From an uncultured bacterium (GTDB lineage: Bacteria; Bacteroidota; Bacteroidia; NS11-12g; UBA9320): a DNA stretch of 64,000 nt. The notes beneath the pieces were generated by a model. That model did not search any database. It worked only from the letters and a program-made list of their open reading frames with translations, and was not told the DNA's origin. How positions within the stretch are numbered: the first letter of the stretch is position 1; each line of letters begins with the position of its first letter. A program made the position numbers and the translations under genes. This document shows, in pieces, positions 26,998 to 63,980 of this stretch. Location: NCBI GenBank assembly GCA_963991985.1, contig CAXDRX010000006.1, positions 7,499 through 71,498 of the forward strand. The letters run 5' to 3'.

Positions 26998-28059
26998 TTA
27001 CAGTTGAATACAGTTATTATGCAAGTTCAATTCTTCAAAAATTGAATTTAAGGTGGATGCTCGGGTGTCTGAAATGATGATTTGCGCATCTTTAATTTTT
27101 GATAAAAAATGAATGAAATTTCGGAGTCTCTCCAGATCCAATCTGTCATTCATATCGTCAATCAACAAAACAGGAGTTTGTTTGGTCTTTTTTTCAAACC
27201 ACTGAAATACTGCACACTTAAGGGCCACAACAAAATTCTTGATTTGACCTTGCGAGGCGTGACTTTTTGTATTCATCCCCAAAGTGAGGAATTTTAAATC
27301 GTCTTTGTGAATGCCCATTAAAGTTCTTTTTCCCAAAATATCTGCGCTTCGATTGCTCATAAATTCATGTTCAAAATCGTCTTCCAGGACTCTTGTTTCG
27401 TAATAAATATCTACCTTTTCATGCACACCTGCTATTTCTTGATAATTGGCCTGAAATAAGGGCAATATTTCTTGAATAAAAATCGATCTGAATTGGGCAA
27501 TATTTTTTGCCAATGCGATCAATTCGGTATCGTAAATATCCAAGAGATAAGTGTCTGGCTTGTGTGAATATAGATTCTTTAGATATCTGTTTCTCTGTGC
27601 CAATATTTTATGATATCTCACCAAATCGATTAAAAAATCCTTGCTCACAAGGGCTATGTTTCGATCCATAAACTTTCGACGAATTTCGCCCAGACCCTCA
27701 ACTAAATTGAGGTCATTGGGCGCTACCCAAACAACATAAAACTGACCATAATAATCACTTATTTTCGAAATTTTATCTTCGTTCAAAAAAAACTGCTTTT
27801 TCCCTTTTTGGAAGGCGACTTTTGCTCTTGAATGATGAACATCTCCTTCTAGCGTAAAGTAGTCGGATGAAATATTTACCATACTTTTTTCAGAAGACGT
27901 CAAAAAACTTTTGGAAAGCATCAAATAAGCGACCGCTTCTAAAAGACTTGTTTTGCCTGCCCCATTGTTGCCAACCACCACATTAAATCCCTCTTTAAAT
28001 GCGAACTCTTTGGCCTTGTGGTTTCTAAAATTTTGTATCTTTAAGTTATGGATTTTCAA
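26998..28059 (-). CDS. recF: DNA replication and repair protein RecF
   Basis: N-terminal Walker A GNNGAGKTSLLEAV, a C-terminal SMC-like signature and Walker B. 353 aa. Confidence 0.9.
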   Translation of the reverse strand: MKIHNLKIQNFRNHKAKEFAFKEGFNVVVGNNGAGKTSLLEAVAYLMLSKSFLTSSEKSMVNISSDYFTLEGDVHHSRAKVAFQKGKKQFFLNEDKISKISDYYGQFYVVWVAPNDLNLVEGLGEIRRKFMDRNIALVSKDFLIDLVRYHKILAQRNRYLKNLYSHKPDTYLLDIYDTELIALAKNIAQFRSIFIQEILPLFQANYQEIAGVHEKVDIYYETRVLEDDFEHEFMSNRSADILGKRTLMGIHKDDLKFLTLGMNTKSHASQGQIKNFVVALKCAVFQWFEKKTKQTPVLLIDDMNDRLDLERLRNFIHFLSKIKDAQIIISDTRASTLNSIFEELNLHNNCIQL

Positions 28060-28083: not shown

Positions 28084-28091
28084 TACTTTTG
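28084..28091 (+). promoter_or_regulatory. -7 promoter element (TActTTTG) upstream of pdhA
   Basis: Matches TAnnTTTG. It ends 9 nt before the pdhA ATG, which implies a leaderless or very short-leader mRNA. Confidence 0.4.
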
Positions 28092-28099
28092 TCTTTCCA

Positions 28100-29089
28100 A
28101 TGGCAAAGGTAAGTCATAGCAAAGCAACCTACTTAGAGTGGTATCGTTTGATGGTTCTGATCAGAAAATTTGAGCTCAAATCGGCGCAAATGTATGGTCA
28201 ACAAAAAATTAGAGGATTTCTGCACTTATACAGTGGTCAAGAAGCAGTCATTGCTGGCACAATGAGTGCTATCGAGAAAAGTGACAAACTAATCACAGCT
28301 TATCGAGATCACGGCCACGCTTTGGCTGTTGGCGTTTCAGCAAATGAATGTATGGCAGAGTTGTATGGCAAATCAACTGGTTGTACCAAAGGAAAAGGCG
28401 GTAGTATGCACTTTTTTGCCGCTGACAAAAATTATTTTGGTGGACATGGAATTGTGGGAGGCCAAATTCCACTTGGGGCAGGTATTGCTATGGCAGATAA
28501 ATATCAAAACAACAAATCGGTAACTTTTTGCTTCATGGGAGATGGAGCAGTAAGACAGGGTGCTTTGCATGAGACTTTCAACATGGCAATGCTTTGGAAA
28601 TTACCTGTTGTTTTTGTGATTGAAAACAATCAATACGCAATGGGGACATCTGTGGAAAGGACAACAAATGTTTTGGACTTATATAAGATTGGAAGTGCGT
28701 ATGAGATGCCTGCAGAGGCTGTGGATGGAATGGACTGTGAAGCGGTGCATGCTTCTATATCCAAGGCTGCCAAGCGTGCAAGAGAAGGAAATGGGCCTAG
28801 CTTGTTGGAAATGAAAACTTACAGATATCGTGGGCATTCGATGAGCGACCCAGGAAATTACCGAAGTAAAGATGAGTTGAAATCTTTCCAAGAAGAAGAC
28901 CCCATTGGAAAAACAAAAATGCGCATGCTCCAGAAAAAATTTGCGACAGAGAAAGAAATTACGGCCATTGAGTCCGCACAAGAAAAAATTGTTGAAGAAT
29001 CTGTACTTTTTGCAGAAAATTCTCCATTTCCAAGCGCAGACGAATTGCATAAAGATGTTTACATTGGAGACTATCCTTTCATAAAATAA
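28100..29089 (+). CDS. pdhA: Pyruvate dehydrogenase E1 component alpha subunit
   Basis: TPP-binding motif GDGA...N and strong similarity to E1-alpha (YRYRGHSMSDPG). The internal Met at 28100 is preferred, because the upstream 49 codons overlap recF antisense. Confidence 0.85.
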   Translation: MAKVSHSKATYLEWYRLMVLIRKFELKSAQMYGQQKIRGFLHLYSGQEAVIAGTMSAIEKSDKLITAYRDHGHALAVGVSANECMAELYGKSTGCTKGKGGSMHFFAADKNYFGGHGIVGGQIPLGAGIAMADKYQNNKSVTFCFMGDGAVRQGALHETFNMAMLWKLPVVFVIENNQYAMGTSVERTTNVLDLYKIGSAYEMPAEAVDGMDCEAVHASISKAAKRAREGNGPSLLEMKTYRYRGHSMSDPGNYRSKDELKSFQEEDPIGKTKMRMLQKKFATEKEITAIESAQEKIVEESVLFAENSPFPSADELHKDVYIGDYPFIK

Positions 29090-29133
29090 TCATCAAAAAA
29101 AAGATAGCCATAATTGGATCAGGTGTTGCCGGA

Positions 29134-30558
29134 ATGGCTGCTGCATGCCGTCTTCAATCTAAAGGATTTGATGTTCACGTTTTCGAGCAAGCGGAGCAGG
29201 TAGGTGGGAAATTGAATGAAATTGTTTTGGGCGATTATCGTTTTGATCGTGGTCCCAGTTTATTCACAATGCCCCATTGGATGGATCAACTCTTTTTGGA
29301 TTGCAATCAAGAGCCAAAAGACTATTTCCAATCCAAACCACTGGATATTGTATGCAAATATTTTTGGGAAGATGGTACGCAAATGGCAGTGCCTCAAGGA
29401 TCGGAAAATATTGTGAACACGCTGCATCAATCATTGGGGGAACCCAAAAAAAATATTAGAAAATATCTAAAAAAGTCTTCCTTTATATTTCATCATACAA
29501 GTCATATTTTCCTTGAGAAAAGCCTTCACAAGTTATCTACCTATCTCAACTACAAAGCATTAAAATCAATCTTGGTGCTTCCTTTTCTCGGCATTTTTAA
29601 GTCAATGAATCTTGCCCACACAATTTTTTTTGAAAAAAGAAAAGCAGTACAATATTTCAATCGCTATGCCACTTACAATGGCTCCAATCCCTACCAAGCA
29701 CCGAGCACTTTAGGCGTCATCCCTCATATCGAAAATTTTTTTGGTGCACATGCTCCCAAAGGTGGCATGTATTCTATTGCCCAAAGCATTCATAATCTCG
29801 GCAAAAAACTAGGTGTTTCTTTTCATTTGGGCAAAAAAATCACACACGTTGAAATAGTGAATAAAAAAGCGCAAAAGATTTTTTTTGAGGATACTCATTT
29901 TGATTTGGACTATTTGGTGTGTAATGGAGACATCAGTAGCATCTATCCATTATTTTCTGATTGGAATGGGAAAAAGAAAAAATTAGAGGAACCCTCAAGC
30001 TCTGCACTCATTTTTTATTGGGGCATCAATAAGGAATTCAAAAATCTGGATGTTCACAATATTTTTTTTTCAAACGATTATGAAAAAGAATTTGAATCAA
30101 TTTTCAATAATAAAATTATTGACGAAGACCCAACCATATACATTAACATATCATCGAAATACGCCATCGCAGACGCGCCTAAAGGGAAAGAAAACTGGTT
30201 TGTCATGGTCAATGCTCCCTATGACGATGAGCAAAATTGGGAAACCATAAAAATGCAAACGAAAAAGTCGGTTTTAGAAAAACTGCAAAGGGTATTGGGT
30301 GAAAATATTTCTGATCTTATTGAGCAAGAAGTTATTTGGACTCCAAAAGAAATCGAAAAACACACCTCTTCCTTTAAGGGTGCGCTTTATGGGAGCTCTT
30401 CTAATAAAAGAACTGCAGCATTTTTTAGGCATCGCAACAAAAGCAAAACCTATCAAAACATCTATTTTTGTGGAGGTAGCGTTCATCCGGGCGGAGGCAT
30501 CCCTTTGTGTCTTCAGTCTGCAAAGATTACCGCTGAACTTTTGATCAATGCCAAGTAA
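29134..30558 (+). CDS. CrtI/CrtD-family FAD-dependent carotenoid desaturase (phytoene-desaturase-like)
   Basis: The C-terminal CGGSVHPGGGIPL is the CrtI-family signature. The N-terminal Rossmann motif KKIAIIGSGVAGMAAACRL spans the first ATG, so the true start is upstream (probably ATC at 29092) with no canonical start codon. Confidence 0.7.
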   Translation: MAAACRLQSKGFDVHVFEQAEQVGGKLNEIVLGDYRFDRGPSLFTMPHWMDQLFLDCNQEPKDYFQSKPLDIVCKYFWEDGTQMAVPQGSENIVNTLHQSLGEPKKNIRKYLKKSSFIFHHTSHIFLEKSLHKLSTYLNYKALKSILVLPFLGIFKSMNLAHTIFFEKRKAVQYFNRYATYNGSNPYQAPSTLGVIPHIENFFGAHAPKGGMYSIAQSIHNLGKKLGVSFHLGKKITHVEIVNKKAQKIFFEDTHFDLDYLVCNGDISSIYPLFSDWNGKKKKLEEPSSSALIFYWGINKEFKNLDVHNIFFSNDYEKEFESIFNNKIIDEDPTIYINISSKYAIADAPKGKENWFVMVNAPYDDEQNWETIKMQTKKSVLEKLQRVLGENISDLIEQEVIWTPKEIEKHTSSFKGALYGSSSNKRTAAFFRHRNKSKTYQNIYFCGGSVHPGGGIPLCLQSAKITAELLINAK

Positions 30559-31180
30559 TCACGAAAAACGACTCATATATTTTGTTGCCTTTGTCCACAT
30601 CATTGGTTTTGTAGGAATTAATTTTACGCCCTTCACCAGATTTTTTCTTGAAGCTTCGCAATTCAATTTTTATTTCGTGGCTTTGTGTTTTGCTTTAAGT
30701 TTAAAAAAAATAAACCCCAAGCAATTGATTGGTCTTATTTCCATATTTTCCCTTGGCATGCTCGTAGAAATTATAGGCGTAAAAACAGGGTTTCCCTTTG
30801 GAGATTATTTTTATACCAAAAGATTGGGCATTCAACTGGCAAAGGTGCCAGTTTGTATTGGTTTCAATTGGATCTTGGTTTGTCTTGGGAGCATGGCTTG
30901 GGGAAAATTTATTTCACCAAAGTTTTCGTGGGTTATTGCCTTAAGTGTTTTACTTGTATTCGACTTGTTGCTCGAACCTGTGGCAATAAAGTTAGGCTAC
31001 TGGGTCTGGAACAATCACAATCCACCAATCAAGAATTATCTTTCATGGCTAATTATTGGCGCAATGGGCATGAAGATTTCAAAAAAATTTGACCTTCCCA
31101 ATAGCTATTTTTTACAAGCTGTTTTGGCCATTCAATTGTTGTTTTTTCTTAGCTTCAAATTGTTCAATGGTTTGAATTAA
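30548..31180 (+). CDS. Carotenoid biosynthesis membrane protein (CruF-like 1',2'-hydratase family, Caroten_synth)
   Basis: About 210 aa polytopic membrane protein with a FPFGDYFY motif. It is translationally coupled to the preceding crtD-like gene by an 11-nt overlap. The family assignment comes from motif and context memory, not from a search. Confidence 0.45.
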   Translation: MPSNHEKRLIYFVAFVHIIGFVGINFTPFTRFFLEASQFNFYFVALCFALSLKKINPKQLIGLISIFSLGMLVEIIGVKTGFPFGDYFYTKRLGIQLAKVPVCIGFNWILVCLGSMAWGKFISPKFSWVIALSVLLVFDLLLEPVAIKLGYWVWNNHNPPIKNYLSWLIIGAMGMKISKKFDLPNSYFLQAVLAIQLLFFLSFKLFNGLN

Positions 31181-31968: not shown

Positions 31969-32436
31969 ATGGCTACCCAAGATGGTCAAATAGCTTATGA
32001 TAAGTTAGATTATCCAAAGTTTCCATCCAAACAAATTGCCGTTGTTTGCACAGAGTGGAATAGTGAAATTACCGATAAATTATTGGCAGGAGCTATAGAG
32101 GCTCTTAAAAAAGCTGAGGTGGAGCGTATCATCTCCATAAAAGTGCCAGGAGCATATGAGATTCCTTATGCTTGCCAAAAATTAGTCCAAAAAAGTGACG
32201 TTGATGGCATCGTGACTTTAGGTGCGATTATTCAAGGAGAAACAAAACATTTTGACTTTATTTCACAGGCGGTTTCTCAAGGTGTCATGGATGTTTCGCT
32301 TAAGTACAGCAAGCCAATAACTTTTGGCATCATTACGCCCAACAACATAGAACAAGCCGAGGATAGGGCTGGTGGAAAATTGGGGAACAAAGGTTTTGAA
32401 GCCGCTTTGTCTTTGTTGAAGATTTTAGATCTTTAA
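31969..32436 (+). CDS. ribH: 6,7-dimethyl-8-ribityllumazine synthase
   Basis: 155 aa with conserved lumazine synthase blocks (VVCTEWNSEITDKLL, GAYEIPYA, GAIIQGETKHFDF). Confidence 0.9.
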   Translation: MATQDGQIAYDKLDYPKFPSKQIAVVCTEWNSEITDKLLAGAIEALKKAEVERIISIKVPGAYEIPYACQKLVQKSDVDGIVTLGAIIQGETKHFDFISQAVSQGVMDVSLKYSKPITFGIITPNNIEQAEDRAGGKLGNKGFEAALSLLKILDL

Positions 32437-33234
32437 AAAATCTTTACTGGGCATCCAAATTATATTGGGATCACGTTTGAACCAGGTCAGTTGCCTTTTG
32501 GCGTAATTTCGTGTATGTTGTTTTATTTTCTCAACGGCGTCCTCTAGTGCGATTTCCCCATTTAAAAAGTCAAAAAGTTCTTTGTAGCCAACGGTTTGTA
32601 ATGCATTATTTTTCTGAAAGGGCAAAAGACGTTTTGCTTCTTCCAGCATACCCTCTATCATCATTTGGTCAACCCGCTTATTTATCCGATCATACAAAGT
32701 ATATCTTTCCCAATGGATTGCCCATTTCTCTATTTTAAAATCGGTGCTTATACTCGGCAAAGATTTCCCTCGCTCGGAAACACTTTCAATTTCAATTGCG
32801 CGAATAAGTCTATGCGGATTGTTCACGTCAATTTGGTTGAATTTCATAGGGTTTCTTTTTTTTAGTTCATTCCTTAAATATTCCATTCCATATTCATCCA
32901 ATTTTTTTTGCAATTGCCCCCTCAGTTTTAAATTTTTCGGTGGCAAATGGTCTAAACCTTCTAAGGCAACTTGTAAATATAAACCGGAACCACCAACCAA
33001 AACTATGGAATGGTATTTTTTGAAGAGTTCATTGATTTTTTGTCGGCAGGCATAGGCAAATTGGTACACATCAAAATCATCAAAAATTGAAAGATTGTTA
33101 ATGAAATGATGCGGAACTTCCTTCAATTCGGTTTGGCTTGGTTTTGCGACAGCAACGCCCAACTCCTTATAAAACTGTCTGGAATCAAAACTTATAATCT
33201 CACACCGATGCTTTTTGGCCATGTGTATGGCCAA
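32425..33234 (-). CDS. miaA: tRNA dimethylallyltransferase
   Basis: MiaA motifs EIISFDSRQFYKEL and VLVGGSGLYL. The P-loop (GATASGKT) lies upstream of the first ATG/GTG/TTG (the TTG at 33234). The real start is probably the ATC near 33276, overlapping the upstream gene stop. Confidence 0.8.
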   Translation of the reverse strand: MAIHMAKKHRCEIISFDSRQFYKELGVAVAKPSQTELKEVPHHFINNLSIFDDFDVYQFAYACRQKINELFKKYHSIVLVGGSGLYLQVALEGLDHLPPKNLKLRGQLQKKLDEYGMEYLRNELKKRNPMKFNQIDVNNPHRLIRAIEIESVSERGKSLPSISTDFKIEKWAIHWERYTLYDRINKRVDQMMIEGMLEEAKRLLPFQKNNALQTVGYKELFDFLNGEIALEDAVEKIKQHTRNYAKRQLTWFKRDPNIIWMPSKDFLKI

Positions 33235-33277
33235 TTTTGTTTTTCCACTTGCTGTAGCACCTACTACCGCTATTATT

Positions 33278-33811
33278 TTATTGATTGGGTTCAGTATTGT
33301 CTGGCGGAATGATAAATTCGTCTCTGGAGAGATCTTCCATTTTGGCTTTTTGAATCAAGTCTTTTGCCATCGTGTCGAACTCATTGCTTTTTAAACCTAG
33401 CTCAAACTTATTCTTTTTGACAAATTGAGGAGGTGCATCCATTTCAGATTTCTGCAACTTTGGATACGACATGGTTTGATCCGATTTAAAAATCTTGATG
33501 AGCTCTATTCTCAAAGCCCATTCTTCGTCCCCGTTGGTAAGGTAGCGAAGCTGCTGATGGGGTGAAACAACCAAATCTCGAACCATCACATTGTCAAAAT
33601 TCTTTTTTTTCTCTCGGTTGTTGGTAATTTTACTTTTGCTTCTCCAGCTGTCGTCTACGATTTCAAAAGCGGAAGATGTTGAGGCATTGAATTTTATTGC
33701 TTTTTGAATGGCTTCATGAAATCGATTGACTGTTTGAGAGGCCAAAACATCAATCACCCGTACAATTTCATCGTAATCTTCAAATTTTATTCTGAACCTA
33801 AATGCAATCAT
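33278..33811 (-). CDS. pRiA4b ORF-3-like / IS1096-passenger-TnpR-like family protein (function unknown)
   Basis: The N-terminal block FRFRIKFEDYDEIVRVIDVLASQTVNRFHEAIQKAIKF...AFEI resembles the PRiA4_ORF3 domain pattern. 177 aa. Confidence 0.4.
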   Translation of the reverse strand: MIAFRFRIKFEDYDEIVRVIDVLASQTVNRFHEAIQKAIKFNASTSSAFEIVDDSWRSKSKITNNREKKKNFDNVMVRDLVVSPHQQLRYLTNGDEEWALRIELIKIFKSDQTMSYPKLQKSEMDAPPQFVKKNKFELGLKSNEFDTMAKDLIQKAKMEDLSRDEFIIPPDNTEPNQ

Positions 33812-62127: not shown

Positions 62128-62240
62128 TTATGAAACAAATATCTTGTATAAGGGAGGTTTATTTTCTCGAAGTTTTCCCCAAACAGTATTTTTTTTTTGA
62201 CCTGAATCGGATTTAATCTGTTTCATTTAGTATACATTTT

Positions 62241-62248
62241 TACTTTTG
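62241..62248 (+). promoter_or_regulatory. -7 promoter element (TActTTTG) for rnpB
   Basis: Matches TAnnTTTG and ends 5 nt before the predicted rnpB 5' end. Confidence 0.45.
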
Positions 62249-62252
62249 TATT

Positions 62253-62598
62253 GGCAAAGGAGTTCATCGCTTCGCTTCGTGTGAAGAGGAAAGTCCGGAC
62301 AGCTCAGAGCAGTGCACTTCCGAAATGGAAGGCAAGTCGAATGGCTTGACAGAAAGTGTAACAGAAAATAACCGTCTGCTTTTGGGCAGACAAGGGTGAA
62401 AATGTGGGGTAAGAGCCCACACACTTGCTTGGCGACAAGCATTTGGTACAAACCTTGCACGCTGAAAGACCAAATAGGCCAACGATAATGTTGCTCGCAT
62501 TGTTGGTGGGTGGGTCGTTTGAGCGTTCTTGTGAAAGTTCGCCTAGATAGATGATGGACCTCCCAAAGGGAGAACAGAATCCGGCTTACGAATTTGCC
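62253..62598 (+). ncRNA. rnpB: RNase P RNA (bacterial type A)
   Basis: Conserved P4 strands GAGGAAAGTCCGGAC (5' side) and ACAGAATCCGGCTTA (3' side). P1 pairs GGCAAA at the 5' end with TTTGCC at the 3' end. The region is locally GC-rich. The overlapping minus-strand ORFs are spurious. Confidence 0.8.
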
Positions 62599-62609
62599 TT
62601 TTATATATT

Positions 62610-63980
62610 TTGAATATGAAGAAAAAGAAAATCCTCATCATAGACGATGAAAAAAGCATTAGAGAAAGTTTGGTAGAAATACTAAACTACGAAGACTATT
62701 TTACTGAAGTTGCCAATGACGGCATAGAGGGGTTAAGCAAAATAGAAAAGGATTTTTTTGACCTTGTCTTGTGCGATGTTAAAATGCCTAAAATGGATGG
62801 GTTAGAATTGCTTGAAAAAGCAAAACAAATTGATGGAGAACTACCTTTTATTATGATTTCTGGTCATGGCACAGTAGAAACAGCCATAGAAGCTACAAAA
62901 AAAGGTGCCTTCGACTTTATCTCTAAACCACCTGATCTGAATAAACTGCTCATCACCATACGAAATGCTTTGGAGAGAAATGATCTAATGATTGAGACCA
63001 AAGTGTTAAAAAGAAAAGTAAGTAAGGTTCGAGATATTGTGGGGGAATCTTCATCCATTGAAAAAATAAAATCAACGATAGAAAAAGTAGCACCTACAGA
63101 CGCCCGTGTATTGATTACGGGTGAAAATGGCACAGGAAAAGAATTGGTAGCACGCTGGATACATGAAAAAAGTAGTCGCAGTGATAAACCCATCATCGAA
63201 GTAAATTGCGCCGCAATTCCGAGCGAACTCATTGAATCTGAATTGTTTGGACATGAAAAAGGTTCGTTTACTTCAGCTGTTAAACAAAGAATTGGGAAGT
63301 TTGAAAAAGCAAATGAAGGAACTTTGTTTTTAGACGAAATTGGTGACATGAGTCTGTCCGCTCAGGCGAAAGTTTTGCGGGCTTTGCAAGAAAATAAAAT
63401 TACTCGGGTTGGAGGGGAAAAGGAAATTCATGTGGATGTTCGAATAATTGCGGCTACCAATAAAAATTTGGCAAAGGAGATTGAAGAAGGAAGATTCAGA
63501 ATGGATCTCTATCATCGAATTAGTGTGATTCTCATTCATGTTCCTTCTTTGAATGATAGAACCGATGATATTCCTCTGATCGCTGAAAAGTTTTTGGAAG
63601 AAATATGTCAAGACAATGGCATCCAGAAAAAACAAATTACTGCCAAGGGAGTGGAAGAGCTCAAAAAAATAAATTGGACGGGTAATATCAGGGAATTGAG
63701 AAACGTAATTGAAAGATTGGTTATTTTATGTGGCCACAAAATAACAGACGAAGATGTAGCTGCTTATGCCAATATTGATGGTAGAAAATCAATGAGTACA
63801 GAAATGATTCATAGCTTCAAGAAATTCCAAGATTGGAAGGATTATTCAGAAAAATTATTTATTGATCTTAAATTGAGAAAGAACAATTGGAATGTAGCCA
63901 AAACTGCATCAGAAATTGAAATTCAAAGAAGCCATCTTTACAATAAAATTGAAAAATTTGGACTAGAAAGACAGAAATAA
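62610..63980 (+). CDS. Sigma-54-dependent response regulator (NtrC family)
   Basis: Receiver domain (ILIIDDE...D55-like DVKMP), sigma-54 AAA+ domain with Walker A GENGTGKE, a GAFTGA-like GHEKGSFTSA loop, ESELFGHEKG and a C-terminal HTH. Confidence 0.85.
   Translation: MNMKKKKILIIDDEKSIRESLVEILNYEDYFTEVANDGIEGLSKIEKDFFDLVLCDVKMPKMDGLELLEKAKQIDGELPFIMISGHGTVETAIEATKKGAFDFISKPPDLNKLLITIRNALERNDLMIETKVLKRKVSKVRDIVGESSSIEKIKSTIEKVAPTDARVLITGENGTGKELVARWIHEKSSRSDKPIIEVNCAAIPSELIESELFGHEKGSFTSAVKQRIGKFEKANEGTLFLDEIGDMSLSAQAKVLRALQENKITRVGGEKEIHVDVRIIAATNKNLAKEIEEGRFRMDLYHRISVILIHVPSLNDRTDDIPLIAEKFLEEICQDNGIQKKQITAKGVEELKKINWTGNIRELRNVIERLVILCGHKITDEDVAAYANIDGRKSMSTEMIHSFKKFQDWKDYSEKLFIDLKLRKNNWNVAKTASEIEIQRSHLYNKIEKFGLERQK

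Follow-up and report, generated by a model that had tools for sequence, protein, structure and literature searches.

Where does translation begin when a gene encodes its most conserved N-terminal motif ahead of every canonical start codon? The question is raised by crtD, a carotenoid desaturase gene on a 64,000-nucleotide (nt) stretch of DNA (the window, in whose coordinates all positions are given) from the lineage UBA9320 (Bacteroidota; Bacteroidia; NS11-12g), taken from positions 7,499-71,498 of the forward strand of contig CAXDRX010000006.1 in assembly GCA_963991985.1. The window has a G+C content of 36-39% and carries genes of Bacteroidota type (gldL/gldN, PorP/SprF, a TonB-dependent receptor and dciA). 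We counted ATG, GTG and TTG as canonical starts and took ATH as the near-cognate class to be tested. Translation of crtD probably starts at an AUC codon (29092-29094), a proposal that draws on alignment with the protein family, conservation of the codon in relatives, a codon-retention control and a start-context score.

The crtD frame is open from 29053, following an in-frame TAA at 29050-29052, and from there translates as RCLHWRLSFHKIIIKKKIAIIGSGVAGMAAACRL.... Between this stop and the ATG at 29134-29136 the frame holds no ATG, GTG or TTG. The translation reads ...HKIIIKKKIAIIGSGVAG-M-AAACRL, with Met 29134 directly after the last Gly of GSGVAG (29116-29133), the GxGxxG motif of the flavin adenine dinucleotide (FAD) Rossmann fold; the entire motif precedes the first canonical start. 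A sequence-only reading of this DNA had already located the first ATG at this motif and described the frame as open upstream of it without ATG, GTG or TTG, and both statements hold. The stretch KIAIIGSGVAG, encoded at 29101-29133, can be part of the protein only when the start precedes ATG 29134. A start at that ATG would remove Rossmann strand beta-1 together with the whole dinucleotide-binding loop. Both the strand and the GxGxxG loop are kept in every homologue.

By its sequence the gene encodes a bona fide CrtD of the CrtI superfamily. It scores 567.4 bits against the CrtD equivalog model NF042421 (cutoff 500), covering profile positions 2-485 of 487, and matches the solved CrtD of Nonlabens dokdonensis (4REP, a gamma-carotene desaturase) with E = 4.7e-136. 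Its 1-hydroxycarotenoid 3,4-desaturase activity is predicted, and a cruF-like hydratase gene lies directly downstream. The same alignments indicate where the N-terminus should lie. Position 2 of NF042421 aligns with the Lys codon at 29098 and the model places the N-terminus at about 29092-29095, residue 3 of 4REP aligns with residue 4 counted from ATC 29092, and the Pfam NAD_binding_8 match starts 8 residues ahead of Met 29134. In 107 of the 117 CrtD homologues with a recognisable motif, the distance from the Met to the first Gly of GxGxxG is 6-10 residues; a start at ATC 29092 makes it 8. The equivalog model, the solved protein and the spacing in homologues bear out the earlier description of a crtD-like desaturase with the CrtI-family N-terminus (M)KKKIAIIGSGVAG. 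Re-delimited from ATC 29092, crtD spans 488 codons (29092-30558, forward strand). Two predicted peptides follow from its upstream part: the tryptic peptide IAIIGSGVAGMAAACR would be made only if translation begins ahead of ATG 29134, and the N-terminal Glu-C/Asp-N peptide from the proposed start would be (f)MKKKIAIIGSGVAGMAAACRLQSKGFD.

The in-frame near-cognate codons at the junction with the upstream gene, pdhA, are ATA 29086, ATC 29089 (whose A is shared with the TAA stop of pdhA at 29087-29089) and ATC 29092. The last is followed by a run of eight A (29095-29102) lying within the Lys codons AAA AAA AAG, positions 2-4 of the gene, which provides an A-rich, unstructured downstream context; the run and both ATC codons are present as previously reported. 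We compared this junction with that of a close relative, L013 (JGI 3300017911, a separate assembly), whose CrtD is 96% identical to that of the window at the amino acid level, and with that of the MED-G17 lineage (L001, L014-L017, L026 and L027, from several samples and assemblers), whose CrtD is 68% identical. Outgroup crtD loci (L028-L031) show about 52% identity. A protein search returned only two close CrtD clusters, P0001 (96%, 474 amino acids) and P0002 (68%, 429 amino acids), the remaining matches having at most 53% identity and mostly 485-500 amino acids, and a genome scan and a metagenome scan for further relatives only recovered the MED-G17 junction again.

In L013 and MED-G17, too, crtD has no canonical start before the FAD motif. 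The junction reads ...ATA AAA TAA TC ATC AAA AAA AAG ATA GCC ATA ATT GGA in the window (TAA-TC-ATC-AAAAAAAAG), ...ATA AAA TAA AC ATC AAA AAA AAG GTA GCC ATA ATT GGA in L013 (TAA-AC-ATC-AAAAAAAAG) and ...CTA AAA TAA A ATC AAA AAT AAA GTT GCA ATA ATT GGC in MED-G17 (TAA-A-ATC-AAAAATAAA). Apart from the ATA ATT of 'IIG', from which a start would leave no beta-1 strand, no in-frame near-cognate codon other than ATC 29092 occurs in all three. The spacer between the pdhA stop and the proposed start is TC in the window (29090-29091), AC in L013 and a single A in MED-G17, giving a stop-to-ATC distance of +2 nt in the first two and +1 nt in the third, and an A stands at position -3 of the ATC in all three lineages. 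Retention of the codon itself can be set against the behaviour of ATC elsewhere. ATC makes up 21% of the Ile codons in the window. The genes pdhA and crtD contain 15 further ATC codons, and MED-G17 has kept none of them as ATC (6 are ATT, 5 are ATA and 4 no longer encode Ile).

The codons upstream of any canonical start also carry the signature of a translated region. In MED-G17 the column of Met 29134 is occupied by Leu (CTT), and the first canonical start of crtD is codon 60. Between the window and MED-G17, codons 1-59 have proportions of nonsynonymous and synonymous differences of pN = 0.19 and pS = 0.67, with a ratio of nonsynonymous to synonymous divergence (dN/dS) of 0.13; over the rest of crtD pS is 0.78, synonymous sites are saturated and dN/dS is like that of codons 1-59. 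In the comparison of the window with L013, dN/dS comes to 0.11 over codons 1-59 and to 0.12 for crtD as a whole, and no lineage shows a break in the 488-codon frame. Because purifying selection on codons 1-59 equals that on the rest of the gene, we conclude that these codons are translated.

The context of ATC 29092 resembles that of real starts. Initiation in Flavobacterium johnsoniae and other Bacteroidetes has A at -3 as a positive determinant, and ribosomes of Bacteroidia, which ignore the Shine-Dalgarno sequence, depend on contexts that are A-rich and unstructured and have A at -3 (PMC6847099). We built a position weight matrix from 40 window starts, using 18 nt upstream and 9 nt downstream and leaving out the start codon, and scored the true starts with it by leave-one-out. 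ATC 29092 scores +5.1 bits, above 97% of the 40 window starts; among 969 internal ATH codons, just 0.7% score as high. ATG 29134, at -7.5 bits, falls below all 40.

How a codon as weak as AUC would sustain expression may be explained by its neighbour. The gene pdhA (28100-29089, forward strand) encodes a pyruvate dehydrogenase E1 alpha subunit of 329 amino acids (Pfam E1_dh, E = 5.8e-94), the length also called in relatives. A Bacteroidetes-type -7 promoter box, TACTTTTG (28084-28091, forward strand), matches the consensus TAnnTTTG exactly, ends 8 nt before the pdhA ATG and is the sole exact match on the forward strand between about 27900 and 29200; its offset from the pdhA stop, -1005, is the same in L001 and L013. 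It is probably the promoter of a pdhA-crtD-cruF transcript, promoter function being assigned from the consensus match only. With a gap of 8 nt between box and ATG, the pdhA leader would be very short or nearly absent. A search for an internal promoter found no exact TAnnTTTG box inside pdhA. A single pdhA-crtD-cruF transcript is likely because the sole exact -7 box precedes pdhA and the 2-nt spacer is too short to hold a promoter. The third cistron, a cruF-like carotenoid 1,2-hydratase gene (Caroten_synth; 30548-31180, forward strand), has an ATG that overlaps the end of crtD by 11 nt; PF04240 matches the orthologous calls of relatives, and the crtD-cruF pairing is present in other Bacteroidota too. 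No significant RNA structure was detected at the pdhA-crtD junction (folding z-scores from -1.0 to +1.0). An Rfam scan assigned no family to the junction and across the window found only RNase P RNA and one tRNA.

On this arrangement crtD would be the second cistron of the transcript, its start lying 2 nt past the pdhA stop. Ribosomes or 30S subunits ending on the abundantly translated pdhA would re-initiate locally at AUC 29092, which initiator tRNA would read as (f)Met to give (M)KKKIAIIGSGVAG.... The weak codon would set a low, fixed output of CrtD relative to PdhA, and of CruF likewise through the 11-nt overlap. In Escherichia coli reporters AUC initiates at 0.1-3% of the rate of AUG, with an N-terminal Met seen by mass spectrometry (bioRxiv 10.1101/063800). 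Termination-reinitiation is limited to overlaps and very short distances, with an efficient range of -8 to +6 nt, and a distance of +2 nt keeps 30-95% coupling in E. coli gene pairs (PMC10666635). The crtD start, on the same strand as pdhA and at +2/+1 nt, falls within the -8 to +6 range. We give slightly less than even weight to the proposal that crtD initiation is fed by termination-reinitiation from pdhA. That the AUC, and not another event, is the initiating step is how we read the conserved codon, and lowered expression may be the purpose of its weakness.

A second gene in the window presents the same difficulty. The reverse-strand gene miaA (32425-33285) has its P-loop GATASGKT (33261-33238) upstream of its first canonical start, TTG 33234, and reads ...CCA ATC AAT AAA ATA ATA GCG GTA GTA GGT GCT ACA GCA AGT GGA AAA ACA AAA TTG.... 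One candidate start, ATC 33285-33283, overlaps the stop of the upstream gene (33280-33278) in the -8 arrangement ATCAATAA, and another, ATA ATA 33276-33271, lies 1 nt past that stop. Position 1 of TIGR00174 aligns with the ATA at 33276; counted from ATC 33285, residue 3 of the protein pairs with residue 4 of 2QGN, a MiaA of solved structure. In MED-G17 (around 9900-10120 in L014, 5950-6170 in L015 and 9200-10400 in L001) the ATC column is GCG, an ATT lies three codons earlier and the ATA ATA is kept 1 nt after the stop; gene callers there use a GTG inside 'AVVG'. The position weight matrix does not discriminate among the miaA candidates. From the aligned sequences, miaA is without a proper canonical start in both lineages, and its start would be one of several candidate ATH codons.

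The sequence-only reading had counted crtD as the second case in the window, the other being most probably miaA, of an ATC-plus-Lys start beside an upstream stop, and had taken the pair to reflect a real feature of initiation in this organism. What survives for miaA is the lack of a canonical start before the motif; its ATC is not conserved, being GCG in MED-G17. The shared pattern is therefore better put as an ATH codon within a few nucleotides of a same-strand stop than as ATC plus Lys as such. To look for further cases we translated every gene with at least 5 open codons before its first canonical start and scanned the products against NCBIfam, a set comprising crtD, miaA and 29 further window genes. 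Among those 29 genes no other family N-terminus lies upstream of all ATG, GTG and TTG codons, with ruvC ambiguous, and a scan of the window for ATH starts followed by Lys-rich sequence yielded no real gene besides crtD. As a general feature of the organism the claim thus gains only partial support: miaA adds a second start-less gene, and no further case appeared among the genes checked. In ruvC (38848-38186, reverse strand) the family N-terminus KIILGIDPG begins at ATA ATA TTG (38725-38717); canonical GTG/TTG codons occur 12-17 codons upstream, leaving the start ambiguous, and the gene has no same-strand stop-start junction.

Of the 57 gene models, 13 lie at tight same-strand junctions (-15 to +6 nt), and crtD and miaA both belong to these 13. 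Several points weigh against an AUC start fed by pdhA. The enrichment of start-less genes at tight junctions is marginal (2/13 vs 0/44, P ~0.05 by our own hypergeometric estimate). The comparison spans two deep lineages and one close relative; with only two deep lineages, conservation of the ATC amounts to about one independent event of retention, for which the background chance is about 0.1-0.2. Two other in-frame codons, ATC 29089 and ATA 29086, would place the N-terminus 9-10 residues ahead of the motif, an acceptable distance. Finally, initiation factor 3 (IF3) in E. coli disfavours both non-canonical codons and re-initiation lacking a Shine-Dalgarno sequence (PMC2268962), and from this discrimination a low yield of crtD is to be expected whether initiation is coupled or de novo.

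The best-placed alternative keeps AUC 29092 and dispenses with coupling: 30S subunits would initiate de novo on the A-rich, unstructured site, independently of termination on pdhA. Shine-Dalgarno-independent initiation is the normal mode in Bacteroidota (PMC6847099), the context score of ATC 29092 is excellent and the site shows no significant structure, all of which make this route possible, if rather less probable than coupling. It leaves unexplained, however, why both start-less genes adjoin an upstream stop. It also leaves unexplained the coincidence of ATC with the pdhA junction. In the outgroups crtD starts with ATG behind spacers of 30-180 nt, and the gene upstream is an amidohydrolase gene, a gene for a CHU_C/PKD protein or a divergent neighbour. 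Since outgroups combine ATG with longer spacers and other upstream genes, the ATC and the tight junction occur together, and the juxtaposition of pdhA and crtD is, among the loci compared, specific to the clade of the window and MED-G17. This co-occurrence is a single event and discriminates only weakly between coupled and de novo initiation.

A different near-cognate codon might instead be used in the window, the start codon then differing between lineages. ATC 29089, which the sequence-only reading had offered beside ATC 29092, and ATA 29086 are within the family range of distances to GxGxxG, and ATC 29089 has a fair context score (2.9). Yet only ATC 29092 is common to all lineages. The 29089 position is AAC in L013 and has no ATC in MED-G17, where AAA and AAT stand at the equivalent positions, directly preceded by an in-frame TAA; ATA 29086 scores -0.2 and in MED-G17 would be out of frame or behind the stop. 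We therefore retain the first of the two earlier candidates, ATC 29092, conserved in three lineages, and regard the use of 29089 or 29086 as unlikely.

It is more improbable still that crtD is a pseudogene, or that a truncated protein unable to bind FAD is made from ATG 29134. Gene callers do annotate truncated forms of CrtD (the 474 amino acids of P0001 and the 429 of P0002). Against this stand the dN/dS of 0.13 over 59 codons upstream of any canonical start, the full-length equivalog score above its cutoff and a 488-codon open reading frame that has stayed intact despite saturated synonymous sites; ATG 29134, moreover, is absent from MED-G17 and has a poor context score. Purifying selection on codons 1-59 excludes both a pseudogene and a start at the first ATG.

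A PdhA-CrtD fusion through programmed frameshifting at A-AAA-TAA has a very small probability. A -1 slip of tRNA-Lys on A AAA (29083-29086), with the stop in the A site, would indeed enter the crtD frame. The frame relation is not conserved, though: the window and L013 need a -1 shift, MED-G17 a +1 shift, and in MED-G17 the crtD frame has a TAA two codons before the ATC. A fusion of E1 alpha with a carotenoid desaturase is also without precedent among the 120 homologues listed. We rejected the fusion on the opposite shifts that the two lineages require. The least probable explanation, a sequencing or assembly indel in the error-prone A8 homopolymer that hides a canonical start, as the earlier reading had suspected, was rejected because the other two frames hold no ATG, GTG or TTG from their last stops (TAA 29087-29089 and TAA 29082-29084) to the run, and because independent assemblies agree, L013 having the identical A8 and MED-G17 an A5-T-A3 in the same frame in at least six assemblies.

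Starts of this kind have precedents. In E. coli, pcnB and infC are the classic natural examples of an AUU start. At infC, which encodes IF3, initiation is weak and subject to proofreading by IF3 (PMC2268962). Like infC and pcnB, crtD would have a near-cognate AUH codon as the sole start of a functional, conserved gene. Unlike those AUU genes, crtD would start with AUC, next to an upstream stop, in a phylum blind to Shine-Dalgarno sequences and with a second such gene nearby; moreover, its carotenoid enzyme is unconnected with translation, and no autoregulatory logic is evident. The AUC reporters of Hecht et al. (bioRxiv 10.1101/063800) supply the biochemical ground for an AUC start, but they were synthetic constructs equipped with a strong ribosome-binding site, whereas crtD is a natural gene that has kept its ATC although synonymous sites are saturated. 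Coupled pairs of the trpB-trpA type, with overlaps of -4, -1 and -8 (PMC10666635), share same-strand orientation and short distance with crtD (+2/+1) and with the miaA ATC (-8). In the pairs known so far the start is ATG or GTG and the products are often subunits of a single complex, whereas pdhA and crtD would combine a near-cognate start with functionally unrelated proteins. The CrtD of 4REP and the members of NF042421 have the N-terminal FAD motif and the crtD-cruF pairing found here, but their genes have ATG starts and upstream spacers of their own.

Across 79 surveyed genomes, about 99.95% of annotated starts were ATG, GTG or TTG, and annotated bacterial genomes very rarely show a natural AUC start that is conserved. 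Near-cognate AUH starts are a known if rare class, and the crtD start falls within it; short of a genome-wide class, it is not a new principle. With two start-less genes among about 57, the window far exceeds the figure of roughly 0.05% for annotated starts other than NTG, a comparison made between one window and an annotation biased against such starts. It is doubtful, on present numbers, that AUH codons near upstream stops form a regular class of re-initiation-only starts in this Shine-Dalgarno-blind clade. If they did, the sites would serve mainly ribosomes that have just terminated, fixing a low output of low-demand genes (crtD-cruF and miaA), and gene callers would miss AUH starts systematically, so that a few per cent of the clade's genes would be annotated in truncated form. 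As a natural test case, the crtD junction bears on how Bacteroidota select start codons and on whether termination-reinitiation relaxes the stringency of that selection.

Consequences for annotation are already visible at these two genes. The public CrtD gene calls are N-terminally truncated (L013, 6001-7425, 474 amino acids; L014, 6001-7290, 429 amino acids), and in the 429-amino-acid cluster P0002, with 18 member sequences, the NAD_binding_8 match is lost. Public MiaA entries of the clade are without the P-loop strand or have half of it. With CrtD entries lacking the FAD motif and MiaA entries truncated in this way, pathway inference and structure prediction made from them will be wrong.

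Two further gene models in the window concern starts or coding calls. Upstream of pdhA on the reverse strand, recF (26998-28059) has an apparent start at TTG 28059, which is both its first canonical start and position 1 of its family model. The RNase P RNA is of bacterial class A (62251-62604, forward strand, 245 bits), and the open reading frames on the opposite strand at 62227-62634 are spurious.

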